Virus record (IMG/VR): IMGVR_UViG_3300039210_000244
Coordinates: 1 to 64,000 of that record
Strand: one strand, 5' to 3'
DNA from: a virus
Length of the DNA stretch: 64,000 bases
Part shown: piece after piece, positions 12,716-57,065 of the stretch
Position numbering within the stretch: the stretch's first letter is position 1
How the letters are laid out: each line of letters opens with the position of its first letter
The notes under the pieces: generated by a model
What the model was told of the DNA's origin: nothing
What the model saw: only the letters and a program-made list of their open reading frames with translations
Database searches by the model: none
Translations under genes and position numbers: made by a program

Positions 12716-13564
12716 TCAGTTGAATGGCTGGCCCTGGCGTTCGGGTTGGCCGGTGTTCGTGTTGCCGTTCGTGGCCGGCTGTTCGTAGCTCTGGAACGGC
12801 TTCATCGGGAAGTTCTCAATGTCGGCCGGTTTCATTGTCCAGCAGGCATTGACCATGAATCCCATCGCCATCTTTTCGATGATTTCGATCGTGGGCTCGA
12901 ACTTCGTTCCGTGCCGTTTGTTAAGATCCGCGATCGCCTTGAACGCGGCGTCAACGCAGCGGTGATACGCGGCTGTAGTTTTTGCCACGCGCTTGTCGAA
13001 GAGCTTCATCTGCACCGCGCGATCCGCGGCGATGCTCTCTTTCGTGGCGCCCTGCGGGGCTGGCTCGGAGTCTGCCGGCTGTGAGCGACCATTCGAGCGG
13101 TTGGGCGGCGGCTGGTTGCCGTCGTCGTTGCGCTGCTGCGATTGCTGACCGTTCGGCGGTGGCGCCTGCTCCTGTTGTTGCGCGGGCGGCGTGACCGGCT
13201 GGCCGCTCCCGTCCTCAAACGAAAGGTCCGGCGACTCGTACACTGAAATTTGCGGCGTTGTCTTGCCCTGATAATTGTTATCCTTGCGAACGAGTCCGCC
13301 AATCCCGCGATCGGAGCGGCCGGCTATCGCGTAAAGCTGTGAGCCTTCCATCCGGCGACTCACTTCTTCACGAGACCACAGCTTCAGCTCGATCTGAGCT
13401 TTGCCGTCCGTGATCACTAGCATCTGGATCGTATAATCGGGTTTGCCGACTTCCTTCGATTTGAATGGCTTGCGCGGATAGACCTTCGTGATCTTGCCGC
13501 GGAACGCTTCGGGCTTCGCGCCGTCGCTCATGTCGATGAGCTGGGAGACAGTATTAACGAGCAT
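12716..13564 (-). CDS. Putative OB-fold nucleic-acid-binding protein with Q/P/N-rich linker
   Basis: FRGKITKVYP...ITDGKAQIELKLW resembles an RPA-type OB fold; ends in PFN. Confidence 0.5.
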   Translation of the reverse strand: MLVNTVSQLIDMSDGAKPEAFRGKITKVYPRKPFKSKEVGKPDYTIQMLVITDGKAQIELKLWSREEVSRRMEGSQLYAIAGRSDRGIGGLVRKDNNYQGKTTPQISVYESPDLSFEDGSGQPVTPPAQQQEQAPPPNGQQSQQRNDDGNQPPPNRSNGRSQPADSEPAPQGATKESIAADRAVQMKLFDKRVAKTTAAYHRCVDAAFKAIADLNKRHGTKFEPTIEIIEKMAMGFMVNACWTMKPADIENFPMKPFQSYEQPATNGNTNTGQPERQGQPFN

Positions 13565-13643
13565 GTTTCTTTCGGGTTATCGGGTTTTAATCTTTTCGGT
13601 TCGGGTTCGGTTCGGGTTCGGTTCGGGTTCTAACGATAGCAGC

Positions 13644-13922
13644 CTATTGTTTTTTCGGCGGCTCCAGTTTGGCGAGCTCCATGATCTTGTCTCGGAGCTT
13701 CGGAAATTTTTCAGCGTACGCGTCGATGGCTTCCTGCGTCGGTCGATTAGGCAGGCGTTCTTCGCTGATCTTCTCCTCGACGAACCCTCCCTCTGAAAAC
13801 TTTTTCATTTCAGCGACAGATTTGCGGAAGCAAATAACTTTGAGCCTCAATACGAGGTCGGGATCGATCCGGGCGTTCCAGAGAATTTTCTCTTCGCCGG
13901 GCGGGAGTGGAGGACGGGCCAT
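13644..13922 (-). CDS. Small putative DNA-binding regulator (RHH-like)
   Basis: MARPPLPPGEEK...NARIDPDLVLRLK; first gene after a promoter motif. Confidence 0.55.
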   Translation of the reverse strand: MARPPLPPGEEKILWNARIDPDLVLRLKVICFRKSVAEMKKFSEGGFVEEKISEERLPNRPTQEAIDAYAEKFPKLRDKIMELAKLEPPKKQ

Positions 13923-13942
13923 ATTCTTTTCGGGTTACAGAT

Positions 13943-13995
13943 TTGACTGAGCAACCGGAACCTAAGCCTATGGCCTGAATAAGTAAAGATAAATA
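13943..13995 (-). promoter_or_regulatory. Repeated phage promoter motif
   Basis: TTTACT-N17-TAGGTT followed by TCAGTCA. Confidence 0.6.
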
Positions 13996-14002
13996 CAACC
14001 GA

Positions 14003-14245
14003 TCACTTGTTTTTCTTTGGCGCCTCAGCGTAAAAATTCGTTGGGTGTAATTTTCCGCCCGCGGTGAGGACGCGGCGACGAATCTTCAGCACGACCTTGG
14101 CGCGGACGCCGCTGACCAGTAGGCGATTCGCTCCAGAGCGATCCATCTTCCACTTCTTCGCCCATTGCAGCGCAGAATAATATCCGAACGGCACATGATC
14201 CGGAACGTTGATCGACTCTCTGATTCGCTTGAGCAGATTGTTCAT
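14003..14245 (-). CDS. Small basic protein, possible winged HTH
   Basis: SALQWAKKWKMDRSGANRLL. Confidence 0.55.
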   Translation of the reverse strand: MNNLLKRIRESINVPDHVPFGYYSALQWAKKWKMDRSGANRLLVSGVRAKVVLKIRRRVLTAGGKLHPTNFYAEAPKKNK

Positions 14246-14248
14246 AAA

Positions 14249-15223
14249 TTATGCGGCCTTCGCCAGAGGGATCGGCGCGAATGCGGAGGTGAACAACGAC
14301 ACACCGTTGATGATCGGGATATTGAGGTGCAGAAATTTCCCGGTATGACTCACGAACTGAACCGCGTATCCGTGCGTCCAATCCGTGTGCCGTCCGTGAC
14401 ACCATAATGGTTGCATTTCGCAGAGACATCCCGGATTCCACGATCCGACGACGCCGACTCCAACCTTGCGCACAATGTCCGACTGCGCCCGGTGCGTGTG
14501 GGCAAACACAATGTTTCCGGCCATGCCGACCTGCGTGGCAGCCGCGGCGTTCTTGGCTGCGAGTACGCCGTGGTGAAAGTAACACTTCCCGCGTTTGATG
14601 ATCCCAGGGACGCTCAGGCCGTCGTGGCATTCGCCGCTCCTGCGGTAGTGAATCCCACGGTCACTAAGTTTCAGCAACGCTTCCGGCCCGACCAAGCTGA
14701 GCAGGAACTTGCCGTCGGACCCGTGTCTCAGCGTCTCGGTCACGCACCACGTCTCTACGCGACGACAGTGGTTCCCTTCGATGAAATCGATCACCGCATT
14801 CGGCGCCGCCGACTGCACGCCGTCGAGAAACCCGTTCGCAGCCGCGATGTCGCCTTCGTACGAATACGCTGTTTCCGCGACGTATCCCATGACGTGATGC
14901 TGCGCGAGGAAGCCTCCGCAATCGATGATGTCGCCGTTTAGGATCAACTCTTGAGGGTTTAGCTGCTTCGCGTCGCGCAAGAATGCCGAGACCGCCGGCC
15001 GAGCCATCTTCGCCCCGTGCACATCGCACGCGATCATTCGGATCGTGTCGCCCCGGAGGCGTGGCATGCGCTTAGCCGGCTGAACGGTCACTTTCCTCGC
15101 CCGGCGCTGACGTTCTACCGCGGCGACCGTTGTCGCCAGCAGCTTCTCAAGTTGAGCGACACGCTTATTCGCGTCCTGCGCTTTTTTGGATTCAACGGCG
15201 GCGCGGATCGTGTCTGGCTTCAT
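14249..15223 (-). CDS. Calcineurin-like metallophosphoesterase
   Basis: DVH, GDIID, EGNH, HHG and AHTHR motifs. Confidence 0.9.
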   Translation of the reverse strand: MKPDTIRAAVESKKAQDANKRVAQLEKLLATTVAAVERQRRARKVTVQPAKRMPRLRGDTIRMIACDVHGAKMARPAVSAFLRDAKQLNPQELILNGDIIDCGGFLAQHHVMGYVAETAYSYEGDIAAANGFLDGVQSAAPNAVIDFIEGNHCRRVETWCVTETLRHGSDGKFLLSLVGPEALLKLSDRGIHYRRSGECHDGLSVPGIIKRGKCYFHHGVLAAKNAAAATQVGMAGNIVFAHTHRAQSDIVRKVGVGVVGSWNPGCLCEMQPLWCHGRHTDWTHGYAVQFVSHTGKFLHLNIPIINGVSLFTSAFAPIPLAKAA

Positions 15224-15291
15224 GCGATTTGCAGCGCATGATTACAAAAGCACTCTGTCGAATTTTACCTCTAAAAATCAGGGTAACGGCA

Positions 15292-16263
15292 CTAAACAAC
15301 GAACTCCAGCGTTTCAAGCGGACTTACTGCGCGCTCCAAATGCGGGTGACGATACGTCTGCGTTGTCTCCAAAGACTTGTGACCGAGAATAGCCTGCAGG
15401 TCGCGAATATCACCTTCGAAATGCGTGCCGAACCCGTGACGCAGGCAGTGCGGCGTGATTCTCGCCAAGATGCCAGCCTTGTCACAAGCGATATAAAATG
15501 CCCGCTGAATCTCGCGGTCCCGCATGTGCCAGCGAAGCATCTGGCCAGACCGAGGGTGCTCTTGCGGCCCGATCGACGGAAACAGAAACATCCACCCCAA
15601 TGAATGCGGAGCCCGTGGATATTTCTTTGCAAGTGCTCCCGGCGTTTGGATAGGCAGTGGCGTCGGACGACGTGATTGGTCCTGTTCGAAAACACGTTTG
15701 GCGTGATCGATCTGGCGGCGGATCTGCACGTGCAGTATTTCTGGCAACGGAACCACGCGATCATGGCCGTGTTTTGGCGCGCGGATCACCAGTCGGCACT
15801 CAGACATCCGAATATCTTTCAACCGAACTTCCAGCGCCTCATTCACGCGCAGCCCGCAACCGTATAGCATGAGGGCAACCAGTCGAGCGGGGATCGCGGG
15901 TGTGTCGAACAGTGCGCCTAGCAGAGCGACCGTCTCTTCACGTGACGGGCAATGACGCTCATAGACCGGCCGCTTGGCGCGAATGGCATCAACATTACCG
16001 AGCGTTTTTCCGACTGAAGCGTACAGCGCATTGATCGCCGCTAGATCGTGGTTTTGCGTGGATGCAGAAACGTTGTCCCGTGTCACTCGCTGGGAAAGGT
16101 ATGCCTCTGCGATCTGCTCCGATGTCCATTCTTTTGGACACGACAGAGCGAAATCGTAGTACAAGCCAGCGACCCGGCAGTACCCCTCCTCGGTATCGTG
16201 CTGCTGGCCCTTTAGGCGGATGCACTGAGCGAGCCGGGCGAGAACCTCACTTTTCGGTTTCAT
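15292..16263 (-). CDS. intI: Integron integrase (tyrosine recombinase with IntI-specific insertion)
   Basis: VSASTQN, LYGCGLR, K, HCLRH, LGH and TTQTY catalytic set; IntI patch PGALAKKYPRAPHSLGWMFLFPS...HPRSGQMLRWH; C-terminal SPL. Confidence 0.93.
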   Translation of the reverse strand: MKPKSEVLARLAQCIRLKGQQHDTEEGYCRVAGLYYDFALSCPKEWTSEQIAEAYLSQRVTRDNVSASTQNHDLAAINALYASVGKTLGNVDAIRAKRPVYERHCPSREETVALLGALFDTPAIPARLVALMLYGCGLRVNEALEVRLKDIRMSECRLVIRAPKHGHDRVVPLPEILHVQIRRQIDHAKRVFEQDQSRRPTPLPIQTPGALAKKYPRAPHSLGWMFLFPSIGPQEHPRSGQMLRWHMRDREIQRAFYIACDKAGILARITPHCLRHGFGTHFEGDIRDLQAILGHKSLETTQTYRHPHLERAVSPLETLEFVV

Positions 16264-16289
16264 GTTACTATGGTTGTAGTTTACTGAAT

Positions 16290-16326
16290 CCGTTATCCGC
16301 GAATTGTCGGAGAATCACTGTTCGGC
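16290..16326 (+). other. Putative attI site (core GTTCGGC at 16320-16326)
   Basis: Lies 57 bp from the intI start; core is complementary to GCCGAAC of the first attC; no attC-like hairpin to its left. Confidence 0.7.
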
Positions 16327-16327
16327 A

Positions 16328-16627
16328 TCACGGTTTGAGTGCCGCGAGTAGGCGGCGGAAGATTCCGGGGCGCTTACGGTTTTGCGCCGCTTGCGACGAC
16401 GCATAGATGGGGTTCTGGCGGATCGCGACGAAGCCGTGCGTTTCGCAGAGCTGCCCCAGGTGCTTGCCGCGTCCGCTGAGTTTCCAGCGTGTGAGCGAGC
16501 CGCAGACTGGGCAGGTTGTCGGCCACGTAGTCGGAGCCGAACTAGACGCCACACCCAATTCGGGGGCGCGTCCGTCGCAGGCTCCGGCGGGAGTCACAGG
16601 AAGAGAAGGAAGGGTTGCAGTGCTCAT
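16328..16627 (-). CDS. Cassette 1 protein, small Zn-ribbon-like (CPVC...CETH)
   Basis: ATG lies in the loop of attC1. Confidence 0.65.
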   Translation of the reverse strand: MSTATLPSLPVTPAGACDGRAPELGVASSSAPTTWPTTCPVCGSLTRWKLSGRGKHLGQLCETHGFVAIRQNPIYASSQAAQNRKRPGIFRRLLAALKP

Positions 16628-16668
16628 AAAGTTTTCAGGCCCCCGAATTGGTGATCTTGGTGTTCGGC
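16536..16668 (+). repeat. attC site 1
   Basis: GCCGAAC...CACCCAATTCGGGGGC // GCCCCCGAATTGGTG...GTTCGGC, extra base in the left arm. Confidence 0.85.
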
Positions 16669-16958
16669 AAAACGAAGACGCCCGGCCTTACGCGGACAAG
16701 CAGCCTGCGTTTCACCATTGTTGAGAGGGTCGCGCCGACGTGTTTTCCGGCGTTGCAGTAGATATTTCTCCCGATGAGTTCTACCGCGGCTTCGAGTGTG
16801 ATTTTCCCGCAGATGTGGCAGTGTTCGATTACGGCTTTTTGCTTCGGCGAGAGTCGCACCGCCGAACCAGACGCCAGAGCACAACGCGCCAGCGTGGCCC
16901 GTTTTTCGGGAGTGGCTTCAACGCTCAACATCTCCAGTTGTTCAGGCGCGTGGCTCAT
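16635..16958 (-). CDS. Cassette 2 protein, winged-HTH-like
   Basis: LSPKQKAVIE...LSTMVKRRLLVRVRPGVF; starts in attC2, ends in attC1. Confidence 0.7.
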   Translation of the reverse strand: MSHAPEQLEMLSVEATPEKRATLARCALASGSAVRLSPKQKAVIEHCHICGKITLEAAVELIGRNIYCNAGKHVGATLSTMVKRRLLVRVRPGVFVLPNTKITNSGA

Positions 16959-16972
16959 CTTAGGTGTTAGGC
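16861..16972 (+). repeat. attC site 2
   Basis: GCCGAACCAGACGCCAGAGCACAACGCGCC // GGCGCGTGGCTCATCTTAGGTGTTAGGC. Confidence 0.88.
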
Positions 16973-16976
16973 ACGA

Positions 16977-17267
16977 TCAATTGAAGCCCTCGATGTAGTG
17001 GCGCATTTGAACGGGCGAAGAAAGCAGACCGGCCATGAGCTGCATCATGCCGAGCTGGATGCCCACGTGTCCCTCGGTATCGGGGTGCTTCCCAAGGTCG
17101 CTGGCCATGCTCGCGAAGGCTTGGTTTACGTCTCCCATGTCGCAGTATTCGAGGGCGCGTTTCTTGCACCACGCTAGATGCTCGGCGCGTGAAGACGGAG
17201 CCGAACCATGTGCTAGAGAGGAACGCCCACTATCGGGGCCTTCGATTGAGTCTGTTGGATTTTTCAT
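16977..17267 (-). CDS. Cassette 3 protein, phage-type hypothetical
   Basis: RAEHLAWCKKRALEY...SDLGKHPDT; ATG in the loop of attC3. Confidence 0.75.
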   Translation of the reverse strand: MKNPTDSIEGPDSGRSSLAHGSAPSSRAEHLAWCKKRALEYCDMGDVNQAFASMASDLGKHPDTEGHVGIQLGMMQLMAGLLSSPVQMRHYIEGFN

Positions 17268-17324
17268 GTTGGTTTTGGTTACTGAGATTTTTCCCGGTGG
17301 GCGTCCCTCACCACGCCGTTCGCC
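17200..17324 (+). repeat. attC site 3
   Basis: GCCGAACCATGTGCTAGAGAGGAACGCCCAC // GTGGGCGTCCCTCACCACGCCGTTCGCC. Confidence 0.85.
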
Positions 17325-17632
17325 AAAGCTATTTTACGATGGTGCTCGCACGGCGCACTTTCAGGGCAGCAATCCGTGATCCCGATGCGGCGACCTTCCG
17401 CGTTCAGGCATGGCCCTAGCCAAACTCGTTCGCCGTCGTAGTTTGTTATCACCATGTCCACGTTCCAACTGAGTGCCTTTAGTAGCAGCTCCGCCTCTCT
17501 GGTTGTGGGCTGGTCCCTGTCGAGCGATTCCCGAAGAGAACGCAGAGGCGAACCAGCGATTACAGACAACGACCCGCACTGTCCGGCTGGCGAAGGGTCA
17601 GCGTTGGCGGGAGTTTGGATTTCAGGTTTCAT
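17279..17632 (-). CDS. Cassette 4 protein, hypothetical with Cys/His cluster (DCC...PCEHH)
   Basis: Starts in attC4, ends in attC3. Confidence 0.7.
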   Translation of the reverse strand: MKPEIQTPANADPSPAGQCGSLSVIAGSPLRSLRESLDRDQPTTREAELLLKALSWNVDMVITNYDGERVWLGPCLNAEGRRIGITDCCPESAPCEHHRKIALANGVVRDAHREKSQ

Positions 17633-17677
17633 GGTTTGAGTGGTTCGGCGGGTCGTGTCTGACTCGCGCCGTTAGCC
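17547..17677 (+). repeat. attC site 4
   Basis: GGCGAACCAGCGATTACAGACAACGACCCGC // GCGGGTCGTGTCTGACTCGCGCCGTTAGCC. Confidence 0.88.
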
Positions 17678-18015
17678 AGAAGGGCGTTTCCGAGCTTGTC
17701 GTAAGCGTAGCGCAGCTCCCGCACGGCGTCGCCAGATAGCCCGACCTTGCCTTGCTGAGCAGCATGTAGGTGGTCGAAGTCGAACCATGCGCGGGCTTCG
17801 CCTATCGTGTTACGCAGGCATGCGTCTTCGTAGCCCTCCGGAGAGCACCGCATCTTCACGCACGTCCATCCCTTGCGCCGAGCCTGTCGCCATTTCATGT
17901 CGCTGAGCCACGCATCGAAAGCGGTGATGCATTCGGCGCGGGTTGGGCGCATTAAGAAGGGGCAGTGACCGCCTTCGGGGGTCGCGATGACCCACATTAC
18001 ATAAGGGAATTTCAT
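17629..18015 (-). CDS. Cassette 5 protein, hypothetical
   Basis: Starts just outside attC5; ends in attC4 with an ATGA overlap. Confidence 0.65.
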   Translation of the reverse strand: MKFPYVMWVIATPEGGHCPFLMRPTRAECITAFDAWLSDMKWRQARRKGWTCVKMRCSPEGYEDACLRNTIGEARAWFDFDHLHAAQQGKVGLSGDAVRELRYAYDKLGNALLANGASQTRPAEPLKP

Positions 18016-18026
18016 AGATTTTCAGA

Positions 18027-18112
18027 GGCTAACCAGCCATCAGAGCCAACGCCGACAATCGTCAGGGATAGATTAGGCATTGGGGCGGCGTGGCTCACCG
18101 TGACCGTTCGGC
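18027..18112 (+). repeat. attC site 5
   Basis: GGCTAACCAGCCATCAGAGCCAACGCCG // CGGCGTGGCTCACCGTGACCGTTCGGC. Confidence 0.88.
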
Positions 18113-18468
18113 GAAGGTGAGCCGTGAGGATCGTAGGCGTTGCAGTGAGGGCATCGTTCGGTGAAGGTGCGCGGCTCCATTTCGACCGCGCCCGCGCAGT
18201 TCCAGCAGTCGCGGCAGTCTATGCTAGCGACTGCACGCGCATAAGCTGCGCGAAGAGGTTTCTCGCGGAAGTCGCGGCAGAGTTGCCGGACCTCGACTGA
18301 TTCATGCGCCAGTTCGCGCTCGAACAGATGTGCGATTTTCGCGATTCGGCGTGGGTGGTTGAGCGGAATATTGTCGCGACCGCGCGGCATTACCGGAGCC
18401 GAACCAGTTGCCAGAGCCAACGTCTCTGCCGGCCCGTCCTTTTTCGATTGGTTTTCTTGAGTGCTCAT
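18073..18468 (-). CDS. Cassette 6 protein, hypothetical with Zn-ribbon (CWNC...CPHC)
   Basis: Starts in attC6, ends in attC5. Confidence 0.7.
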   Translation of the reverse strand: MSTQENQSKKDGPAETLALATGSAPVMPRGRDNIPLNHPRRIAKIAHLFERELAHESVEVRQLCRDFREKPLRAAYARAVASIDCRDCWNCAGAVEMEPRTFTERCPHCNAYDPHGSPSPNGHGEPRRPNA

Positions 18469-18516
18469 AGTTGAGAGTTTTTCGCGGCAGAGCCGTTGCT
18501 CATCGTGGTGTTCGCA
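18398..18516 (+). repeat. attC site 6
   Basis: GCCGAACCAGTTGCCAGAGCCAACGTCTCTGCCG // CGGCAGAGCCGTTGCTCATCGTGGTGTTCGCA. Confidence 0.88.
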
Positions 18517-18905
18517 GAATCAATCACGTCGCGCATGAGTCGGTAAGTTTTCGGTGCGTTGTAAGCCTTGCACCAGTCGAGTCCGACTTCGTTCAAGAAC
18601 GCCTGCTCGATTTCATTCCAGCGGGCTATCAGCGCGGCCCACACTTTCGACGCCACGGCGATTTTCGGGAAAGCGTCACGTACTGCAGGCGCAGCCTTGA
18701 GCAGCAGCAGGCAGCGGTTCAGGTCGTCGGGGTCGTGTGGGTAGTTGATGCGTTCCGGCGTTGAGCCGAGCGCGATCATGGCCATCGTTTTTGACGAGAG
18801 GCCGACGCGCCCGTTTGCGAGCCAGTCTAAGACACGCGAACCAGTCGCGACAGACAACGATCCGCCACTGTCCGTTTTCGTGGAGTTTTCAGTTGGATTA
18901 TTCAT
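18465..18905 (-). CDS. Cassette 7 protein, phage-type hypothetical
   Basis: WLANGRVGLSSKTMA...PHDPDDLNRCLLLL; starts in attC7, ends in attC6 (ATGA overlap). Confidence 0.75.
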   Translation of the reverse strand: MNNPTENSTKTDSGGSLSVATGSRVLDWLANGRVGLSSKTMAMIALGSTPERINYPHDPDDLNRCLLLLKAAPAVRDAFPKIAVASKVWAALIARWNEIEQAFLNEVGLDWCKAYNAPKTYRLMRDVIDSANTTMSNGSAAKNSQL

Positions 18906-18948
18906 GTTTGGAAATTTGGGCGGATCGCGTCTGCCCTAGGTGTTAGGC
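18835..18948 (+). repeat. attC site 7
   Basis: CGCGAACCAGTCGCGACAGACAACGATCCGCC // GGCGGATCGCGTCTGCCCTAGGTGTTAGGC. Confidence 0.88.
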
Positions 18949-19427
18949 TTTCTTTCGCTTGGGCAAAACGGGGTCATTTCATGCACGCTAAGAGCCTCCG
19001 TCCGTGGTTTGCCGCGAATCATTCCGCAGGACCACACCGAAGCATCTCCCTCGGGGTCGAGTTGTTCGATAAGCCAGCAAAGGCCTTTCGCAGCCTTCAC
19101 AGCACGCGCGTCGCGACGGGCCTGCATCGCGGCTTTCTTTTCGAGCCGATCGCTCTCGTCTTGCGCCATTTTGGCCAGCATCTCAGAGACGCCTAGGGCG
19201 AAGATCGCGGCCTGTGCCGGGAAGTCCTTCCCGAGTTTTGCGAGGTGTTCCCATGCCTTTTTTGGCTGCTCACCGTAATAGAGCTTGGTCCACATCGGAT
19301 GATCCTTCGTTTTCGAGATCGAATCCAGGCTGGCGATATTGTGCTGCGCCATGATGGCCGCGCGTTCATCGTCGGACATTGGGATCTCGCAGCGGTGTTC
19401 AAGCAGGAGTTTTGACAGGGTGCTCAT
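18936..19427 (-). CDS. Hypothetical protein, first gene of the operon reading into the array (no attC of its own seen)
   Basis: Follows promoter and leader repeat; ends KPNT* inside attC7. Confidence 0.7.
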   Translation of the reverse strand: MSTLSKLLLEHRCEIPMSDDERAAIMAQHNIASLDSISKTKDHPMWTKLYYGEQPKKAWEHLAKLGKDFPAQAAIFALGVSEMLAKMAQDESDRLEKKAAMQARRDARAVKAAKGLCWLIEQLDPEGDASVWSCGMIRGKPRTEALSVHEMTPFCPSERKPNT

Positions 19428-19447
19428 GTCGTTTCGGGTTCGGGTTA

Positions 19448-19500
19448 AACTGACTACCCGAATAAACTATTCGAACGCACGATAAAAGTAAAGATAAAAA
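19448..19500 (-). promoter_or_regulatory. Repeated phage promoter motif, likely driving the cassette array and intI
   Basis: TTTACT-N17-TAGTTT, then GTAGTCAG and AACCCGAACCCGAA leader. Confidence 0.65.
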
Positions 19501-19522
19501 AGACGGTTTGTTTTGTAAATCT

Positions 19523-20014
19523 CTACGCTGATGCCTTGAAAAACCCAAGCATCCCGGTGCACGCGACGAACGGCAGCGGCCGGATCTCGTCTAGGACATA
19601 GCCGTATTCGCCCATGAACCACGGGCTGGAACTTCCAGTAACGCATGCGCCGAGCTTCGCCATGCCGGTGATCCCGCCGAGCTCATAGCTGTCGAACCGT
19701 TTCGACGCGAACACGTCCGCCACCGACTGTGGCAGCCGGCCGAGACCGATGCCGCGTTGAATCACCTCCATCGCGCAGTCGAATGCTTCGGCGGTCATCT
19801 TCGCTTTCGAGGCATGAACGAGAAACCATGTCCGCCGGTGCGACCGCCGGCTTCGGTTCTCGATGTTTTTGCACTCCTGCTTGCGCTTGTCCGGATCGGT
19901 GAGATCAGGCCGCGTGATCAGGAACGCCCACGGCTGCTTAATAGCGAGGGCAGGGAAGAGGCGCATGTAATGGCGAGTGTCTGAGTCGGTCATGGCTTTA
20001 ACGTTCGCGTTCAT
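19523..20014 (-). CDS. ASCH/PUA-domain protein
   Basis: ALAIKQPWAFLI...KNIENRS...LVHASK...GMLGFF. Confidence 0.85.
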   Translation of the reverse strand: MNANVKAMTDSDTRHYMRLFPALAIKQPWAFLITRPDLTDPDKRKQECKNIENRSRRSHRRTWFLVHASKAKMTAEAFDCAMEVIQRGIGLGRLPQSVADVFASKRFDSYELGGITGMAKLGACVTGSSSPWFMGEYGYVLDEIRPLPFVACTGMLGFFKASA

Positions 20015-21039
20015 GCTGTCGGGTAGCCGTTGTGTTCGACGCCATCGAGCAATCGGCCGGCAGCGGCTTTGCCGACTCGCGCCATGTATGTCTGCGTTTT
20101 GTCCATGTTCTGAAACAGATACCACTCCGGATTGATGGGGCACTTCGTTGATAGGTCGTGCGTGAATTCTACTCGGTTGTCATCGAGGACTTTCACGGGC
20201 GCCCACTCTCCCCATTGTTTATAAAGAAAAGGCACGCCCGCAGCAGAGCACTGATTGCGCAGCGATATTGCCCATGTCGGATGCATCGGACGCGCGTTAG
20301 GTCCAGACTCGCCGCCGCAAATTACCCAATGGATTCCAGTGAGGGCTTTTTTCCCAAGCTGCGCAACCGCGTCGGAACGCTTCGTTACGTTCGAGAATTC
20401 CAGCGGCCCGAGCAACGGCTCGCACGAAAGAAATCGCACGACGGCCGGAATTGCGAGCAGCGATGGGATTCGCTCGTCGGCACGTTGCCGGTCTTCGACT
20501 GACGTTCCGATCCACACGTTAGCGGGCGGCTCAGGATCGACATTTATGAGTGCACCATCAGCCTTCTGGCCGATCCATGCGAAAATCCAGTTCTCAAGAT
20601 CCATCCGACCTACGCAGCTCTCCATCGCTGCGAGCAAACGCGGACGGAAATTCTCCGGACGCTTCGTGAGCAGCAGCCAATCGAGGTGCTGGCATTTGCG
20701 GATGAGATCAAGCAAGTCAGCCAGCCAATCAAGCGGAACCTCGTCGTCCAACCAGTCGGAGAGCGATGCGCAGAAGACGCGTGGACGACGTTTTTTCGCG
20801 TCTCCCTTTTCAGCCCACCGAAGGCAGTCGGCTTCGGCGTTTCGACTCCATCGGATAGGCTCTTTCCAATTCGCAGCGGATGTGCGCGAGCGCGGATTGC
20901 CCTTGCCCCATTTTACGCGGCCATAGCGCGCGTCCATCAGCGTTTCGGCATAGCAGTGCGCACAGCCGGGTGAAACCTTTGTGCAACCGATCCACGGATT
21001 AAACGTGTGATCGGTCCACTCGATTTTTGAGTTTTCCAT
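20011..21039 (-). CDS. Phage Gp37/Gp68 (DUF5131) family protein
   Basis: SKIEWTDHTFNPWIGCTKVSPGCAHCYA, LLTKRPEN, RFLSCEPLLG, WVICGGESG, KQWGEW. Confidence 0.93.
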   Translation of the reverse strand: MENSKIEWTDHTFNPWIGCTKVSPGCAHCYAETLMDARYGRVKWGKGNPRSRTSAANWKEPIRWSRNAEADCLRWAEKGDAKKRRPRVFCASLSDWLDDEVPLDWLADLLDLIRKCQHLDWLLLTKRPENFRPRLLAAMESCVGRMDLENWIFAWIGQKADGALINVDPEPPANVWIGTSVEDRQRADERIPSLLAIPAVVRFLSCEPLLGPLEFSNVTKRSDAVAQLGKKALTGIHWVICGGESGPNARPMHPTWAISLRNQCSAAGVPFLYKQWGEWAPVKVLDDNRVEFTHDLSTKCPINPEWYLFQNMDKTQTYMARVGKAAAGRLLDGVEHNGYPTA

Positions 21040-21935: not shown

Positions 21936-22292
21936 TCACTTGATGACCTCGATTATCATGGTACCGCGAATCTCCACGAGCAGGCCGGTTTTCTCGTCCT
22001 CGAAGTAGCAGCCGTCACCCTGCACGTCGGTCACGGCTCCGGTTGTCGTCCAAGATTCGATCGGATTTCCGCTGTTTCCGTAGAGCGTGATCTTGTGCCG
22101 CTTTCCCAGCGCATTGAAGGACGCCACTTCCGCGTCAGTGCAGGCAGCGAGAAAGAGCAGAGCCAAACCAGCCACTAGAGCCAACGCCCACAGTCGGGGG
22201 CTTCGGCGATTGGCGGCGCGGATGATTCGGCTGTAAGCCATCCTCAGTTCGGGGATGGCGGACACTGCAACTGTCATGTTTTTCGTGCTCAT
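21936..22292 (-). CDS. Putative lipoprotein
   Basis: Hydrophobic stretch ending in LAAC lipobox. Confidence 0.6.
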   Translation of the reverse strand: MSTKNMTVAVSAIPELRMAYSRIIRAANRRSPRLWALALVAGLALLFLAACTDAEVASFNALGKRHKITLYGNSGNPIESWTTTGAVTDVQGDGCYFEDEKTGLLVEIRGTMIIEVIK

Positions 22293-22311
22293 GTCGTTTC
22301 GGGTTCTGGTT

Positions 22312-22362
22312 GCTGACTGACACGAACAAACTACCCGTTACATCGTTAGATGTAAATATAAT
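22312..22362 (-). promoter_or_regulatory. Repeated phage promoter motif
   Basis: TTTACA-N17-TAGTTT then GTCAGTCA. Confidence 0.6.
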
Positions 22363-24284: not shown

Positions 24285-24324
24285 AAGAACACCTCGGCGT
24301 GTCTCACGACGCCGAGGTGTTCTT
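24285..24324 (-). terminator. 16-bp perfect hairpin, probable terminator after the tail operon
   Basis: AAGAACACCTCGGCGT-N8-ACGCCGAGGTGTTCTT. Confidence 0.6.
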
Positions 24325-29720: not shown

Positions 29721-31510
29721 TTCTTCCCTCCGGTGTTTGTCTTCGCAGCGATCATGGTCGGATCAGCCTTCGGCATTTCCGGTGCTCCCCGGAAATTGTC
29801 GTAGTTGCTGTGCGCTTGACACGCTTCGGGAGTGCCGAGGCACCCGGGGACCAAGACCCAGCCCGGTTCAACCGCGGTCGGAGCGGGCGTAACTGGAGCG
29901 GCGAATATACACGAAAGATTTCCGTCCGGCAGATTCACAGAATCGACAATCGGATAGACCTGCGTTTCTCCGCCAATCACGCGTTCAGCATAGCCGTTCG
30001 CAAACCAATGATCAGGCAAGGCCGACGGACCGAATTCCGCTACGCCGGCGGTGATGCCGGCCAGCGCATGCGTGACCTGCACGTCCGCTTTCAATTTCGT
30101 GCACTTGGCATCGCAGAACACGGCTGCGCAATTCGGCGACAACGAGTAGCGCGGACCTTCGATGTCTAGCATCGAGCCGAGACCTTTCAGCTTCATCGTC
30201 AGGATCGGACCATCCCCCTTCGGGGCAACGGCCTTGCCCGTGTAGATCAGCTCGGCTGCGGTTGGGTTGTCTGCCGTCCCCTCGTAAATTTTAACTTCGA
30301 GAGGTATTGCGGCCGGCCGGTTGCGGAGCCTCGTAAATGGCGACCCCGCCCAATTTGCGACGGTCAAATCACAATCGTTGATCTGGAGGTTGATCTCCTC
30401 CGTGATCGTCCCGTGCTCGATCCCGCGGTGCTCGTACGTACCTCCCGGTCCCTCCCCACCAACTTCGTACGGTGTGAAGCGCCAAGTCGTATAACCGTCG
30501 CTCACGACATATCCGAACCACGGTCCGGGCACGCCGCCGATCGTCACGCCCGGAGTCTCGCCGGTCAGGACGAGGGTCTCTGTCGGCAGCTTGATAAACT
30601 CGATCTGACCGCTCACGCATTCGCCCGCGATCGCCGGAAGCTCCCAGTTCAACGTCAACGCGTCGCCGTAGAACCGGCCGACGTTGTAAACCGCTGAATC
30701 GTTGTTCGACGGGCAGCGCCACGCGCCCACCGTGCCACACCGGTCTCGGAACAGGGTCAGCAGATAACACGTCTCCGACAGATCCATCGCCTTGAAGTTG
30801 ATCGTCTGCTTACCGCGCGGAATCTGGGAATAGTATTCGTCGGCGTCCTCGCGACCGAAGCCGACCTTGGACCGCTTGATCCGCACATCATATTTTTCAG
30901 AGTTCGCGCCCCACGTGAACGGAACCGTCAGGGTTGGAACCGTCACCGTGCGCACGACCGATGTCGTCAACGCGACGACGTTCGGACGGAGCGCATTTGC
31001 GGCTGATCCATTCTCAATCACCTCGAACGAAACGACGTGATCGCCCTGGCCGTTAATCGTTATCAGCTCCGGGAATTGCGCGTCGAACCGCCCCCACAGG
31101 ACCGGAGCAACCATGCACAGCGACGACGGAACGAACGTGGACGGTCCCGCACCGGTTCCAATTTCATAAGTGGCAAAATCCGCCTCGAACCAAATCTTCA
31201 GCGCGCCAACGACGCTCGCTTCTTTGCCTCCAGAAAGGAGTGTCACCGCCGGCCAGAAGGGAGTGAGTACCGGACGATTGTCCCACGCGTCGAGCGATGC
31301 CGTCAGCACACCGTATTCGCCGGCGGTAAGCAGTCCGGTGAATTTGAAGGACGTAGTGGTTTCAACCGCCAACGGGAACCGCTCTTCACGATTCGTTTTG
31401 CCAGTGTTGCGCGTCGCCTTCGCCAAGATTTTTGCTGCGATCGGCTTCGACCAATCGTGCAGGTGGGGGATCAGAAATACGGCCTGGCCGAGATATGTCG
31501 TGGAGATCAT
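29717..31510 (-). CDS. Distal tail / baseplate hub protein (DUF2163/BR0599-like C-terminus)
   Basis: C-terminal CAAVFCDAKC...PGC...C...NFRGAPEMP cysteine pattern; follows tape measure. Confidence 0.75.
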   Translation of the reverse strand: MISTTYLGQAVFLIPHLHDWSKPIAAKILAKATRNTGKTNREERFPLAVETTTSFKFTGLLTAGEYGVLTASLDAWDNRPVLTPFWPAVTLLSGGKEASVVGALKIWFEADFATYEIGTGAGPSTFVPSSLCMVAPVLWGRFDAQFPELITINGQGDHVVSFEVIENGSAANALRPNVVALTTSVVRTVTVPTLTVPFTWGANSEKYDVRIKRSKVGFGREDADEYYSQIPRGKQTINFKAMDLSETCYLLTLFRDRCGTVGAWRCPSNNDSAVYNVGRFYGDALTLNWELPAIAGECVSGQIEFIKLPTETLVLTGETPGVTIGGVPGPWFGYVVSDGYTTWRFTPYEVGGEGPGGTYEHRGIEHGTITEEINLQINDCDLTVANWAGSPFTRLRNRPAAIPLEVKIYEGTADNPTAAELIYTGKAVAPKGDGPILTMKLKGLGSMLDIEGPRYSLSPNCAAVFCDAKCTKLKADVQVTHALAGITAGVAEFGPSALPDHWFANGYAERVIGGETQVYPIVDSVNLPDGNLSCIFAAPVTPAPTAVEPGWVLVPGCLGTPEACQAHSNYDNFRGAPEMPKADPTMIAAKTNTGGKK

Positions 31511-34500
31511 GCGAGTTCGTACTGCACGCCTTTGATGTAATCGTTCATGAAGCGCCGGCCCGGCATCGTCTGAAGCCATTGCTCTGCCGACTGCTCGTTT
31601 CCGAAGTGCGCGACGTTCACGGTCTGGCCACTGCCGGACGAACCGGTGACAACCCCGCTCGCGCCGCCAGTGGTTGATTTGAGCGCGCCGCCAGCTGCGG
31701 CGGAACCTCCACTCTGCACGTAAACGTCAGCCTGCGCCGCGCGCTGCGCGTCAGTCCGCGTGTCGGAAACAGTTCCGGTCTGCGACTGCGGTCCGCGATA
31801 GATACTCACGAGTTTGTCGTCGATGCCGGTAAACAGCATCTTGCCGAGCCAGCCGCCGGTTTTGAAACCGGGGATCTTCTTCCCCAGCCGAGCCGCTTCG
31901 TTGAGCCCCATAAGCCAGCGGTATTTCGGATTCTGCGCGACCTCCGCGGTCTGCACGTATTCGCCGTTCGACAACCGCGCGTCGATCTTGTCGTCCTTGG
32001 GACCGCCCGGACCGACCACGGCACCGCCGCCATCGGCGTAGTTGACCGGGCCACCATCACGGAAATTCTTTTTCATCACCGCCGCGCCCGCCGCGATGAT
32101 CGCCGCCAGCGCCGCGATGGCGAGGAATGGCCCAACGTACGGAATGCTCGCGACGGCGGTCATGCCTTTGATGCCGGCCTGAATCAGCGAAGATCCGCTC
32201 TCAGCGTTCGACGCAGCGATACGTGAGGTGGCGCCGCCGACCGTCACCGCTGTTTTCGTTCCCTCGGTAGCGATCGTGCCCACAACTTCCTTCGTGCGGA
32301 AGATCGCCGAGACCGCGGCCATCAATGTGTGTTTGATGACCCATTGAGCGGCCATGTCGGAAATCGATTTCACAACCGTCTTGGCGATCCCAAGGAAAAC
32401 GCCGTTGACCGCTTGGCCGACGGTCATCGTCTTGTTGAGCAAACCCTCGATGCTCCCGGACACGGAATTGATCGCACTGCCCATCACGTCTGCAATTGAG
32501 CTTCCGATGGTTTTGAATCCGTTCTGCAGCTGAGTCATGGACGCGGTGACGGATTGGGAGAGATTGTTTGGATTCGGCCCGGCGTTAGCGGCATCGCCCT
32601 GCGCCCGTCCAAGATCGCGGCTCGCGCCAGCCACGTTCGTGTCTCCGATCGCGATCGCTTCGGGCGAGACGGCATGGCTCCGAATATCCTGCATCTGCTT
32701 CAGGTATTCCTTCGCCGCTACCACGGAGTCATCGAGCGCCTGCTTTCGCGCGTTCCATTTCTCCGCATCGGTGTGCGTGAAATCGGCATCGATATTCGCG
32801 AGCCGGAGCTGGATTTCATCCTGCTTATTCTCCAGAGCCAGCTTCTGCACGTCGATTTGTGCACGGGTCGCCTTCAACTCCGCCTCTTCCACTTTCTTGG
32901 CAGCGGCAATCTGATCGTCCGCGGCTTTTTTCTTTTCGTCGGCGATTTTGGTGTCCAGCGCGCCCTGCTTCGCGCCGATCTCCAGTTTCGTCTCCTGCAA
33001 TTTAAGGCCCGCTGCCTCAATGGCATTGTCGTCGCCGACGAGGCGCGCGGCTGCTAGATCGATTTTATAGATCTCCTCCGCCTTCGCCTTTTCGGCGTCG
33101 ATCATCACCTGTTTCTTCTGATTGTCGGCAAGGGTATATTGCGCGGTCTCGATCTGATTGGCGTAGGCGTCCTTCTGCTTGTCGAGTTCGGCTGTCGTTT
33201 CCTTGGCCTTGTCCAGCGCCGCGGTTTCGGCCGCTGCTTGTTTCTCTTTTTCTCCACGCGCCGCCGCTTCGACCTTTAGCCGGGCAGTGACCTTTTCCTT
33301 CAGCTGTGTTTCGAGATTCGAAATCTCCTGATTGTAGGCGACGACCTGTTTGCGCTCGTTGTCGCCGAAGGTGTCGGTTTTTCCTACCGTCACAGTCCCG
33401 CCGCCCATGTTAGTCCCCACAACCTGATCTTTGTAGCGGCCCTTCATCAGCGCGTCGCGTTTTGCGATTAGATCATCAATCTCTTTTCGCGCCGCATCGT
33501 TGGCGGTATCCACCCCACCAGCACTCGTCGCCGTCTTGGCAGCATTTCTGATCTGATTCCCCTTCCCGTAGATTTCCGCGAGCTTGGTGTCGGCCTCCTC
33601 AATACCCTTCAAGACCGAATCGCGTATCGAGGCGATAATGATCGCGCCAAGTGCAACGGTCAGCGCCGCCCCCATGGGTGAAAAAAGAGCCGAACTGATC
33701 GACTTCCCAACGCTCGCCCAATTCCAACTAATCATACCCATCGACCATTTTGCCGCGAATCCCCTACCGAGAGGAACGGCGAGACCCGGCATGATCGACA
33801 ACATTTTGGACAACCCGGAGAACGCACCAAAGCCGACCGCAGCCGTCGTCAGTCCTTCTCCGATCGCGCTGATTGCAGCACCATAGTCGGCGAGAAAACG
33901 GGTAATGTCCGCCTTCCACTCCAAAAGGCGAAGGTTCATCGGAGCGAAGGCGATGGAGAGACGATTGGACGCGTGTTCACCCGCGAAAGCCGTCTCCACG
34001 AGCGCGTCTGACATCTCCTTCGAGAGAATTCCGGCGGTCTTCTGCACACTCTTCGACATCGCATCAAATCCCTGCTCATTGAGTGTCTTCAACACATCCA
34101 GCATCGGTCCCGCAAAGCGCCCGAAGAGTGTCATCGACAAACGCGCTTTTTCGTTCTCGCTAGAGATCTTCGAGAACGATCTCGCGAGCTCTTCGAGCTG
34201 TTGCTGCATCGGCAGCGCGTCAAGCGCCTTGGGGTCGAGACCCAATTGTGATCCAAACATCGCCGCTTGCGGTCCCTTCGGATCAATCAGCGCCGCGCCG
34301 AGCGCCGCACGATACTGCTGGAGGTGCATCGCCAGCTCCGAAAACGCCATCTTGCCACCGGCCGCCAAGACCTGCGTCGCATCGCCCGCAAGGCCGGTGG
34401 CACGCGTCACCCGCCACATCTCATCCGCCAACCGACTCGATCCGTTGACCGCCTCCCCGATCTTCTCGGTGATCGCCTGAATCCCGATGGTCGCGATACC

Positions 34501-34683
34501 GAAGGCGGCGCCAAACTCCAGGAGACTATGGCCAGTCTCGGTCAGCTTTGAGTCGAGTTTGGAAACCTCCTCGGTGGTGCCCTTGACTTCTTGTTTGGCC
34601 GTTACAAATCCTTTGGCCATATCTGTCAATCCGGCGAGGTCCGCCTGAATTTTCAGCAGGATAGAGGTGGATGTATCGGGCAT
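31507..34683 (-). CDS. Tail tape measure protein
   Basis: >1000 aa, Ala-rich helical; C-terminal GPGGPKDDKIDARLSNGEYV. Confidence 0.9.
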   Translation of the reverse strand: MPDTSTSILLKIQADLAGLTDMAKGFVTAKQEVKGTTEEVSKLDSKLTETGHSLLEFGAAFGIATIGIQAITEKIGEAVNGSSRLADEMWRVTRATGLAGDATQVLAAGGKMAFSELAMHLQQYRAALGAALIDPKGPQAAMFGSQLGLDPKALDALPMQQQLEELARSFSKISSENEKARLSMTLFGRFAGPMLDVLKTLNEQGFDAMSKSVQKTAGILSKEMSDALVETAFAGEHASNRLSIAFAPMNLRLLEWKADITRFLADYGAAISAIGEGLTTAAVGFGAFSGLSKMLSIMPGLAVPLGRGFAAKWSMGMISWNWASVGKSISSALFSPMGAALTVALGAIIIASIRDSVLKGIEEADTKLAEIYGKGNQIRNAAKTATSAGGVDTANDAARKEIDDLIAKRDALMKGRYKDQVVGTNMGGGTVTVGKTDTFGDNERKQVVAYNQEISNLETQLKEKVTARLKVEAAARGEKEKQAAAETAALDKAKETTAELDKQKDAYANQIETAQYTLADNQKKQVMIDAEKAKAEEIYKIDLAAARLVGDDNAIEAAGLKLQETKLEIGAKQGALDTKIADEKKKAADDQIAAAKKVEEAELKATRAQIDVQKLALENKQDEIQLRLANIDADFTHTDAEKWNARKQALDDSVVAAKEYLKQMQDIRSHAVSPEAIAIGDTNVAGASRDLGRAQGDAANAGPNPNNLSQSVTASMTQLQNGFKTIGSSIADVMGSAINSVSGSIEGLLNKTMTVGQAVNGVFLGIAKTVVKSISDMAAQWVIKHTLMAAVSAIFRTKEVVGTIATEGTKTAVTVGGATSRIAASNAESGSSLIQAGIKGMTAVASIPYVGPFLAIAALAAIIAAGAAVMKKNFRDGGPVNYADGGGAVVGPGGPKDDKIDARLSNGEYVQTAEVAQNPKYRWLMGLNEAARLGKKIPGFKTGGWLGKMLFTGIDDKLVSIYRGPQSQTGTVSDTRTDAQRAAQADVYVQSGGSAAAGGALKSTTGGASGVVTGSSGSGQTVNVAHFGNEQSAEQWLQTMPGRRFMNDYIKGVQYELA

Positions 34684-34802
34684 AACGCACCGCACGGAAT
34701 CCCAGCGAGCCCGTCAAATTTTACCTCCTAAAAATATACTTTCGAAAGCCGTCTGCGCGCTTTGCGACTTGTCCGCGTAGGTTTAACCGGCTACCAGCGG
34801 AA

Positions 34803-41641: not shown

Positions 41642-42673
41642 TCATTCCGTGCGGAGGGATTTCTTGCTGCGCCAAAACTTGGAGAATGCTTTCTGGCAGT
41701 CGGCGGCGCCGAGGCTGCGTGTGCGCACGAGCGCGTCCGGGTTCATCGGGACCGCCACGAGGCTGATCTCGTACAAATCCGCCGTGTGGATACCGCGACC
41801 ATCGTCCTCGTAGTACCAGATGCCGCCGATCGACACGCCTTTCAGGTGGCCTTCGACGAGCTTGTACCGGACATCGCACATCCCGGGCGCGTTGCTGATC
41901 CGTCCGCGAACCGCGAGACCTTGCGCGGTGACGCCAACTTTCTCCCAGCTTCCGGCGATGGCATCGACCTCGTTCTCGTGATCGGTCAGAATCACGGGGT
42001 TGGTCATGAACTCCGGGATCGTCGCATCGAATGCGCCCGGGAGAATATAGTCGCCACCGCGGTCCTTCGGCGTCGTTGAGACGAAGGTGGAGGCGAAGCC
42101 TTCGATCACCACGTCCTGATAATCACAGATCGGGCAGTCGGCATCGTCCGCAGCACCGGCGTCAACCATGCTGGTGCCGTCGGCTGCCGTCTTCGGCGCC
42201 ATTGGGCGCGGCATGCGAATCGGTTTAGCTTTGCAGTCAGCCGGGAGCGTGAGTGCCGCCGAGGCTTCAAAAATCTTGATTTGCTGGCCGGAGATCAGCG
42301 CCTTGCCGAGTTCGAGATCCGTCTGCTTAACCGCGGTCGTCGCTTCGGTCAGATAGAGCCGACCGTCGCGGCCCGGGATCGCCATCTGTGCGATGACGTT
42401 CGCGCCCTCGATGCGTAGTGCCTTGCCGGCTACGCGCGCACCCTCGTAGGCAAAGAACACCGGTTTGCCCAACAACTCTGCCATCGCCTTCTCGTGCGCG
42501 TTCGGCGCGAGCAGATTCCCTACGACGTGACGTCCGGTTTCGGACGCGAGCCACGCCTTCATCTCCGTTTGGTTGGAGTGATTACGCACGAGCAAAATCT
42601 TTTGCGCGGGCTTTTTGAGTTGGAGAATCTTGCTCACGTATTTGGGTTTCACGACGCACCGCAGGTCGGTCAA
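41642..42673 (-). CDS. HK97-family prohead protease with N-terminal extension (start uncertain)
   Basis: IEGFAST...DRGGDYILPGAF...NPVILTDH...GVSIGG...LYEISLVAVPMNPDA. Confidence 0.92.
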   Translation of the reverse strand: MTDLRCVVKPKYVSKILQLKKPAQKILLVRNHSNQTEMKAWLASETGRHVVGNLLAPNAHEKAMAELLGKPVFFAYEGARVAGKALRIEGANVIAQMAIPGRDGRLYLTEATTAVKQTDLELGKALISGQQIKIFEASAALTLPADCKAKPIRMPRPMAPKTAADGTSMVDAGAADDADCPICDYQDVVIEGFASTFVSTTPKDRGGDYILPGAFDATIPEFMTNPVILTDHENEVDAIAGSWEKVGVTAQGLAVRGRISNAPGMCDVRYKLVEGHLKGVSIGGIWYYEDDGRGIHTADLYEISLVAVPMNPDALVRTRSLGAADCQKAFSKFWRSKKSLRTE

Positions 42674-50807: not shown

Positions 50808-51158
50808 TCATGTGCGTGCCTTTGCTTTCTCAATCTTGCGTCCAATGCGGCGCTTCCGTTGGGCTTCCTCACCATCGCAGCAACTCCCGCAGAAGTGATA
50901 CGGCGCGTGGCCGAAGTCTAGACACTCGCCCGCGCTCCATTCGTTATACCAGTCACCGCAAACCTCACACCGCTCAACGTGGTCAGTGACTTGCCAGTCT
51001 TGATTGCCGAGAAACCAGATCACCGTTGCGGCTTGCTCTGGCGTGAGCTTTGGCATGTGGGCTGGCACGATCACGTGCCCTTCCTGCACTTCACCCTGCA
51101 AGAAGCTAAACAGCTCCTCTGTGTTCTTTCTGTCGAGTTCGTTTTGGTCGGCTCTCAT
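50808..51158 (-). CDS. Hypothetical protein with Zn-finger-like CxxC pairs
   Basis: CEVC...CGSC; ATGA overlap. Confidence 0.6.
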   Translation of the reverse strand: MRADQNELDRKNTEELFSFLQGEVQEGHVIVPAHMPKLTPEQAATVIWFLGNQDWQVTDHVERCEVCGDWYNEWSAGECLDFGHAPYHFCGSCCDGEEAQRKRRIGRKIEKAKART

Positions 51159-56961: not shown

Positions 56962-57065
56962 GGTAGTGTTCAGTTCAGTTCGGTTCAGCTCTGGCGTTCG
57001 CACGCTTAGAGAAACACCTCTGGCCGTCTAGCAATTCCCTTAACTTTCGCGCATGGGCACAAAAA

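Follow-up and report, generated by a model that had tools for sequence, protein, structure and literature searches.

The first 64 kb of an 84,461-bp linear IMG/VR virus record (IMGVR_UViG_3300039210_000244; an uncultured soil phage, 88% complete by CheckV) contains an integron between positions 15292 and 18948. These 64,000 nucleotides (nt) are referred to below as the window. Textbooks treat integrons as systems by which bacteria capture genes, and most of those known so far come from bacterial chromosomes and plasmids. Here, the locus is probably a phage-resident integron of a Verrucomicrobiota-associated clade of integron integrases (IntI), in which a canonical platform is combined with reverse-built coding cassettes that serve the shuffling of accessory genes. 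A sequence-only reading had described a complete integron inside a phage early operon, and this description was borne out: intI, attI, and seven attC sites are present, and the arrays of IntI relatives share the attC type. The reversed open reading frames (ORFs) and the coding attC sites are additions to the text of that reading. The parts of the integron and their polarity are shown by computation, and so are the signature of the cassettes, the grammar by which they are coded, the association of ORF orientation with genomic context, and an insertion or deletion at attI in a related phage.

Integrase and recombination sites

The platform and the recombination sites were mapped as follows, with attC scores taken from a covariance model built from the seven window sites alone:

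15292-16263, minus strand: intI, integron-type tyrosine recombinase of 323 amino acids (TIGR02249, catalytic residues, IntI insert)
16264-16326: attI region, with core GTTCGGC at 16320-16326 (GCCGAAC on the bottom strand) and GAATCA motif at 16312-16317
16536-16668: attC1, 101.7 bits
16861-16972: attC2, 89.5 bits
17200-17324: attC3, 103 bits
17547-17677: attC4, 109.6 bits
18027-18112: attC5 (short), 74 bits
18398-18516: attC6, 99.3 bits
18835-18948: attC7, 96.3 bits

The best NCBIfam match of IntI was TIGR02249 (integron integrase), with 212.7 bits over the full length as opposed to about 85 for XerC/XerD; the PF00589 score was 87 bits. The catalytic residues R139, K164, H272, R275, H295, and Y304 were invariant in an alignment of 40 relatives, as were residues K214, Y215, P216, W224, F228, and P229 of the IntI-specific insert. 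This insert, located between patches II and III (ALAKKYPRAPHSLGWMFLFPS), aligns without gaps with a segment of VchIntIA (PDB 2A3V), in full accord with the earlier description of a tyrosine recombinase with all catalytic residues and the integron-specific insertion. Identity to the window IntI was 60 to 87% for its nearest relatives (P0001-P0047) and 29 to 35% for IntI1 and the Shewanella and Vibrio IntIs. Among the matches listed in a metagenome scan, IntI relatives were at most 45% identical, save one partial match at 54%, and a viral scan with the IntI protein alone as the query found nothing. A phylogeny, suggested as a check by the sequence-only reading, placed IntI in a clade with a support of 100 that consists of three subclades, is tied to Verrucomicrobiota, and includes chromosomal integron integrases adjoining attC arrays.

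The attI core sits 57 nt from the intI ATG and is exactly complementary to R'' of attC1. On the bottom strand, the motif RCCGAAC-N2-3-(T)GATT occurs 20 to 60 nt ahead of the intI ATG in 11 phage-type relatives, so the attI-like core noticed earlier at 16320 is both present and kept. In most relatives, attI gives a stop in the crossover phase ahead of the intI ATG.

The seven imperfect palindromes reported earlier, 86 to 133 nt long, were all found; each starts with xxxxAAC and finishes with GTTxxxx. They share one plan: a 7-nt core ending in AAC, about 9 unpaired nt, a stem of 13 to 15 bp, and a loop of 30 to 80 nt, followed on the 3' side by the return stem, 8 to 9 unpaired nt, and a core beginning with GTT. 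Paired cells comprised 81.6% of the total, as opposed to 31 to 42% for slid partners, and none of 500 shuffles matched the observed value on four of five measures. The stem is backed by compensatory changes, in 12 of 15 stem pairs by our own count of double changes and in 12 of 14 by RNAalifold, which recovered this stem and placed a single bulged column in its 5' arm. The test of structural conservation across the seven sites listed 13 pairs with double changes. The plus-strand 5' arm carries one or two extra (extrahelical) bases in every site (7/7); therefore, the minus strand has extra bases opposite its 5' AAC. Extra bases in the arm that lies opposite the 5' AAC are the hallmark of the recombined bottom strand (PMC5027507).

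The covariance model scored the seven sites at 74 to 110 bits and nothing else in the window above 24 bits. Applied to 0.53 Mb surrounding IntI relatives, it found 87 sites. Most of those mapped relative to intI lie upstream, and a few are located downstream (in the related loci L003, L006, and L132). Metagenome loci yielded 19 further sites, and 1.09 Mb of sequence flanking distant integron integrases yielded only 5. Without exception, the hits of the model were on the strand opposite intI. Thus, the site type is the native attC of this IntI clade, and the polarity of the platform is canonical. Rfam gave no matching family, and a tRNA search found none.

An eighth, weak attC-like site (24 bits, 22157-22244) overlaps the 5' end of a minus-strand ORF (21936-22292) that is lipoprotein-like; the bottom strand of the site reads CCGAAC-TGA-gg-ATG, resembling the cassette grammar described below. 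It was rejected as an eighth cassette, the 3' end of the ORF having no complementary core; the site may be a fossil cassette or may have arisen by chance.

Complementary cores around a cassette are a signature of integration from circles. In the window, the core at the start of a cassette and the inverse core of its own attC were complementary at 47 of 49 positions: exactly in cassettes 1, 2, 4, 5, and 6 and with one mismatch in cassettes 3 and 7, just as first described. The cores within a site were complementary at 39 of 49 positions. A value of 47, the maximum possible, was reached by 24 of 5,040 permutations (p=0.005). Because the signature is symmetric, it was rejected as an indicator of array polarity, which is set by the one-sided bulge and by the borders of two natural variants, L004 and L007, described below.

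Orientation and coding of the cassettes

The cassettes and the gene upstream of them are as follows:

16321-16662, minus strand: cassette 1, ORF 16328-16627 (99 amino acids, CxxC protein), attC1
16663-16966, minus strand: cassette 2, ORF 16635-16958 (107 amino acids), attC2
16967-17318, minus strand: cassette 3, ORF 16977-17267 (96 amino acids), attC3
17319-17671, minus strand: cassette 4, ORF 17279-17632 (117 amino acids), attC4
17672-18106, minus strand: cassette 5, ORF 17629-18015 (128 amino acids), attC5
18107-18510, minus strand: cassette 6, ORF 18073-18468 (131 amino acids), attC6
18511-18942, minus strand: cassette 7, ORF 18465-18905 (146 amino acids, phrog_1229 family), attC7
18936-19427, minus strand: backbone gene with its own leader (163 amino acids), entering R' of attC7 (K-P-N-T-stop)

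All seven cassette ORFs lie on the minus strand, which is the bottom, recombined strand, and face intI. This is opposite to described integrons; the ORFs are not promoterless top-strand genes expressed from Pc away from intI. The G+C content by codon position mostly fits minus-strand coding, with a weaker signal than in reference genes. With intI 64 nt downstream of the array on the same strand, divergent Pc/Pint promoters would not fit in between.

In each cassette, read as transcribed, attC comes ahead of the ORF. Along the mRNA, the frame of the upstream gene passes AAC of the crossover box as an Asn codon (P/A-N-T/G) and ends within the hairpin; the ATG of the next gene is only a few nt away, twice overlapping the stop as ATGA. 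Across the window and twelve related phage-type loci, AAC was in phase 0 in 32 of the 38 sites with a long incoming frame (p=1.4e-10), and four of the six exceptions have the stop inside the core itself. The stop was located 3 to 59 nt past the core in 34 of the 38 sites and within the core in 4, with the ATG, where assignable, usually -4 to +30 nt from the stop. This layout demonstrates that attC sites can sit in reading frames under a simple phase rule. Since the crossover (the slash in AA/C) always cuts the codon at one position, termination is preserved whichever cassette comes after another, or after attI.

The individual junctions are as follows. The ORF of cassette 1 has its own stop 2 nt ahead of the attI core, that of cassette 2 crosses R' of attC1 as P-N-T and stops in the attC1 loop, and that of cassette 3 has its ATG within the attC3 loop. 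The C-terminal tail of cassette 4 (A-N-G...) is encoded by the attC3 arm. In cassette 5, the ATG lies 12 nt outside attC5, and the stop overlaps the ATG of ORF4 (ATGA).

Pfam and PHROGs gave no match for cassettes 1 to 5, and no significant family match was found for cassettes 1 to 6 in Pfam, PHROGs, or ESM Atlas. For cassettes 5 and 6, the only leads in the ESM Atlas were to viral hypothetical clusters and stayed below threshold, and a weak zinc-ribbon match of cassette 6 (PF14599, 20.1 bits) was below the cut-off of 27. Cassette 7 matches phrog_1229 over residues 23 to 131 (E 3.9e-34), and 261 phage records hold homologues of it; the match is confined to residues 23/24 to 127/128 in the 12 best of the listed records. 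Residues 1 to 22 of cassette 7 are encoded by the attC7 loop and 3' arm, and the last 15 to 18 by the attC6 5' arm; both attC-encoded ends are add-ons.

Outside the array, a small Cys-rich gene at 50808-51200 shares 73% protein and 77% DNA identity with a cassette gene of the related locus L048 (7992-8303), and the similarity stops at the L048 attC sites. The same gene is therefore found with and without attC.

Genomic setting, related loci, and cassette turnover

Nearly all genes of the window are carried by the minus strand. PHROGs matches place phage genes on both sides of the integron (phrog_221 metallophosphoesterase, phrog_3193, and phrog_2045/DUF5131), no terminal inverted repeats were found around it, and the G+C content is uniform across the locus (0.57-0.59). 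The flanks thus agree with the earlier observation of phage genes on both sides and no visible transposon ends. The other features of the window include the following:

14249-15223: phrog_221 metallophosphoesterase, flank of the integron
20011-21039: DUF5131-type protein (phrog_2045/DUF5131), flank of the integron
31507-34695: tape measure protein (PHROGs match)
41642-42673: protease/capsid (PHROGs match)
55522-57003: portal (PHROGs match)
60250-62304: TerL (PHROGs match)
within the window: two helicases (PHROGs matches)

An independent 13.6-kb Logan contig from a 2014 soil-metagenome study, with an even depth of 53, matches positions 13500 to 19854 without difference. Contigs from three further soil samples bridge 15189-15655, 15684-16556, and 17880-20028, that is, the left junction, the stretch from intI through attI to cassette 1, and the right junction. 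The array was identical across these four samples of one soil study. No excision joints or variants were seen in the assembled Logan contigs, a material that is silent on rare events.

Several Logan records of 31 nt (run X1), with other depths, match the R''-L'' arm of attC5 (18027-18057) with one or two changes, and one 210-nt record from the same run departs exactly at 18027. The same community thus holds other cassettes whose attC arm is near-identical.

Among the related loci, ORF orientation was uniform within every locus and tracked the genomic context, with some cassettes ambiguous in most loci. No cassette was scored as facing away from intI in phage loci L002, L003, L006, L009-L012, L048, L056, and L062, whereas none was scored as facing intI in chromosomal loci L050 (13 sites), L064, L132, L049, L054, L059, and L143. 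The checked loci with ORFs toward intI have phage hallmarks beside intI:

L002 and L010: portal and capsid
L006: DnaB
L007: TerS, TerL, portal, protease, and capsid
L013: minor head and tail fibre
L048 and L056: TerL and ParB

Overall, at least eight different phage backbones show the reversed layout, with portal, terminase, or DnaB genes as neighbours. The flanks of chromosomal L050 and L132 encode sulfatases, a hybrid histidine kinase, and the like. The strand was also checked by homology, with a DNA methyltransferase cassette in phage locus L002 and, on the other strand, a GNAT cassette in chromosomal locus L132. It is thus shown by computation that phage context is linked with the reversed orientation and that Verrucomicrobiota chromosomal arrays are canonical.

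Two related contigs had been binned as bacterial. IMG/VR locus L008 is 100% identical over 12.3 kb to L057, which was binned as Burkholderiales, and the sister locus L062 was binned as Polyangiaceae; L057 and L062 are probably mis-binned phage contigs. The intI genes of L011 (8459-9427) and L012 (1614-2582) share 88% DNA identity, and their cassettes and phage backbone flanks are unrelated. From this pair, the intI/attI module seems to move between phage backbones. Some other phage loci have attC-like sites of the same polarity 7 to 9 kb from intI (L006 19009-19861, L003 8635-9089, and L048 43-186). Two of them in L006 flank a 248-amino-acid ORF and form secondary sites, within a phage genome, that resemble clusters of attC sites lacking an integrase (CALINs).

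Cassette turnover was found in a pair of related phages. The IMG/VR contigs L004 and L007, which stem from separate samples, share 11 kb at 100% identity, intI and the packaging module included, but L007 carries 1,442 additional bp placed exactly at attI. The insert is bordered as ...TCTAA/C, insert, ...ATACAA/C, followed by GATGTTTCT-intI. It consists of two cassettes, each starting with a hairpin and each with an inner core perfectly complementary to its own 3' end (GTTAGCC with GGCTAAC and GTTGTAT with ATACAAC). A further contig, L005, terminates at the same attI AAC. In L007, the ORF-sense strand has the borders at its AAC, with the extra bases on the other arm; these two features independently confirm the ORF-sense strand as the recombined strand. 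By its sequence, the difference between L004 and L007 has every appearance of a natural recombination product, either an insertion or a deletion at attI.

A comparison of relatives for cassette content, recommended by the sequence-only reading, thus yielded two phages that differ by two cassettes exactly at attI. The accompanying proposal, that the phage gains and shuffles genes through its own integron, is backed by this difference between related phages; for the phage of the window, we infer such activity.

Proposed mechanism, alternatives, and known systems

The geometry of the platform is canonical: intI and the attC top strand diverge, the 5' end of intI adjoins attI, and the extrahelical bases are on the arm opposite the cut AAC. 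In our model, the whole array would be transcribed with the phage early operon toward attI and into intI, driven by a putative promoter upstream of 19427. IntI would be made during infection by read-through and would excise and insert cassettes via the folded bottom (minus) strand. At each junction, the 5' arm of the recombined strand of attC provides a short C-terminal tail and a stop for whichever gene is located upstream, the loop provides the next ATG, and the 3' arm with the R'' core encodes a leader of about 20 to 35 residues. With the AA/C crossover always splitting an Asn codon in one phase, any join would terminate and stay translationally coupled. The phage could thereby gain, lose, and reorder small accessory early genes, and the cassettes may be accessory, possibly counter-defence, genes. 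More speculatively, the non-template strand during transcription might be the recombinogenic strand.

A promoter-like TTTACA-17-TATCTT is located at 19519-19491, and there is no terminator between this site and intI. A leader, gaacccgaaacgacATGagcac, is repeated ahead of two minus-strand genes (19428-19522 and 22293-22330). The scan for promoters and terminators performed no better than on shuffles, except for one strong terminator at 24324-24285. This minus-strand terminator (24285-24324), with a 16-bp stem, is probably the upstream boundary of the transcription unit that contains the integron.

Several observations weigh against a phage-resident integron of this kind. The IntI score of 212.7 bits is below the curated TIGR02249 cut-off of 265. 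Scores were 257 to 276 for chromosomal members of the clade, 261 to 287 for other phage members, 160 for L048 (the closest relative among the loci analysed), and 434 to 472 for proteobacterial controls; by these values, the subclade of the window is a divergent branch of the family, the most divergent one, and the other clade members straddle the cut-off. In the attC sites, some 8 to 9 unpaired nt separate the R box from the L box, and the commonest core, GTTCGGC, breaks GTTRRRY at position 4. With DNA parameters, the bottom strand was more stable in only 3 of 7 sites, whereas mobile integrons tend toward a more stable bottom strand (PMC5027507). Finally, none of the seven window cassettes was found in any other sampled array, and an all-against-all comparison of arrays revealed no cassette common to different sampled loci. 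The mobility of these seven cassettes is therefore predicted from their sequence signatures.

IntI could instead be chiefly a lysogeny integrase, with the phage inserting as a giant cassette into a host attI or attC and the array being a by-product or a set of docking sites. The 84-kb record yielded no other clear recombinase and none of the serine type; its sole other hint of a tyrosine recombinase, at 11.5 bits, is a 430-amino-acid ORF located past the window (G000 83058-83486), for which Pfam gave no confirmation. One model finds both phage and chromosomal Verrucomicrobiota attC sites, and a Vibrio prophage flanked by attC sites has been described (PMC9892861). However, the record is 88% complete, so another integrase may be missing; the difference between L004 and L007 is a cassette-sized change at attI within a phage genome rather than a junction of phage and chromosome; and no contig was seen with such a junction at attC. 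We consider this unlikely as the chief role of IntI, and a role in lysogeny would be compatible with cassette shuffling.

Stops and starts packed into the loops with ATGA overlaps, together with an array identical in four samples of one study, would also fit hairpins that act mainly at the RNA level, in translational coupling, processing, or attenuation, next to a fossil integron whose recombinase is inactive on them. Yet the full-length recombinase keeps all catalytic residues, the core complementarity is at its maximum, and turnover was seen in a related phage. The stems show compensatory changes and a one-sided bulge, the latter not needed for RNA coupling. This explanation is quite improbable.

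Marginally less credible still is passive capture of a piece of a host chromosomal integron through aberrant prophage excision or illegitimate recombination, as in Vibrio anguillarum phages. The published complete integrons in phage records are of this type (PMC9892861), and some members of the IntI clade are chromosomal, from likely hosts. Against this, the window integron lies inside an early operon rather than at a genome end and has a uniform G+C content, all its ORFs are opposite to those of the chromosomal arrays, its cargo includes a widespread phage gene family (phrog_1229), and the reversed layout recurs across the phage backbones listed above. An assembly chimera of a host integron and a phage, which would have undone the sequence-only reading and is suggested by the origin of the record in a metagenome assembly, has a negligible probability, as the depth-53 contig and the contigs of three more samples span the junctions and the reversed layout is seen again in other phage contigs.

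If a phage-adapted integron is indeed present, it would be a concrete mechanism for the fast turnover of small early or accessory phage genes, with the DNA methyltransferase cassette of one related array as an example of its cargo. We lean, with little better than even confidence, toward a broader view in which Verrucomicrobiota phages keep one or more integron lineages of their own and a separate pool of reverse-built cassettes, with attC doubling as fixed-phase coding sequence for the in-frame swapping of stop-less genes. Since the attC type is shared, phage and host integrons may exchange DNA, or the sites may serve phage integration. Natural pairs of one gene with and without attC, as found here, may bear on the origin of cassettes. 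The locus also supplies new IntI/attC pairs for recombination assays.

The window integron resembles sedentary chromosomal integrons (the Vibrio cholerae superintegron, with VchIntIA 2A3V, and Verrucomicrobiota loci L050 and L132) in its IntI insert, attI at the 5' end of intI, attC array of uniform polarity, AAC/GTT cores, extrahelical bases on one arm, complementary cassette cores, and AA/C crossover. Unlike them, it is phage-borne, its ORFs are on the recombined strand with attC before the ORF and the arms translated, its R-L spacer is longer (about 8 to 9 nt), and its IntI is below the TIGR02249 cut-off. In the reverse integron of Treponema denticola, intI is flipped and lies upstream of canonical cassettes with the ORF followed by attC. 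There, as in the window, intI and the cassette genes are transcribed in one direction, but in the window intI, attI, and attC are canonical, the ORFs are flipped, and intI is downstream.

CALINs in virulent phages (PMC9892861) likewise place attC-bounded genes in phage genomes, as do the isolated attC pairs in L006, L003, and L048, whereas the window locus has intI and attI. A literature search for reversed arrays or phage-resident integron lineages found nothing, and the literature found reports a few integrons in phage records, each of them explained by capture from a host or a plasmid (PMC9892861). The three complete integrons and one In0 that Qi et al. (2023; PMC9892861) reported in phage records were described there as captured from host superintegrons, as a class 1 mosaic carried by P1, or as belonging to an inactive prophage; the examples are V. 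anguillarum prophages, a P1 isolate with class 1 integrons, and Shewanella prophage M16-3. These share with the window the presence of intI and cassettes in a phage record, but no phage-integron lineage and no reversed or coding cassettes were described. Unlike a captured superintegron fragment of that type, which would be expected at a prophage end, the window integron is internal to the early operon.

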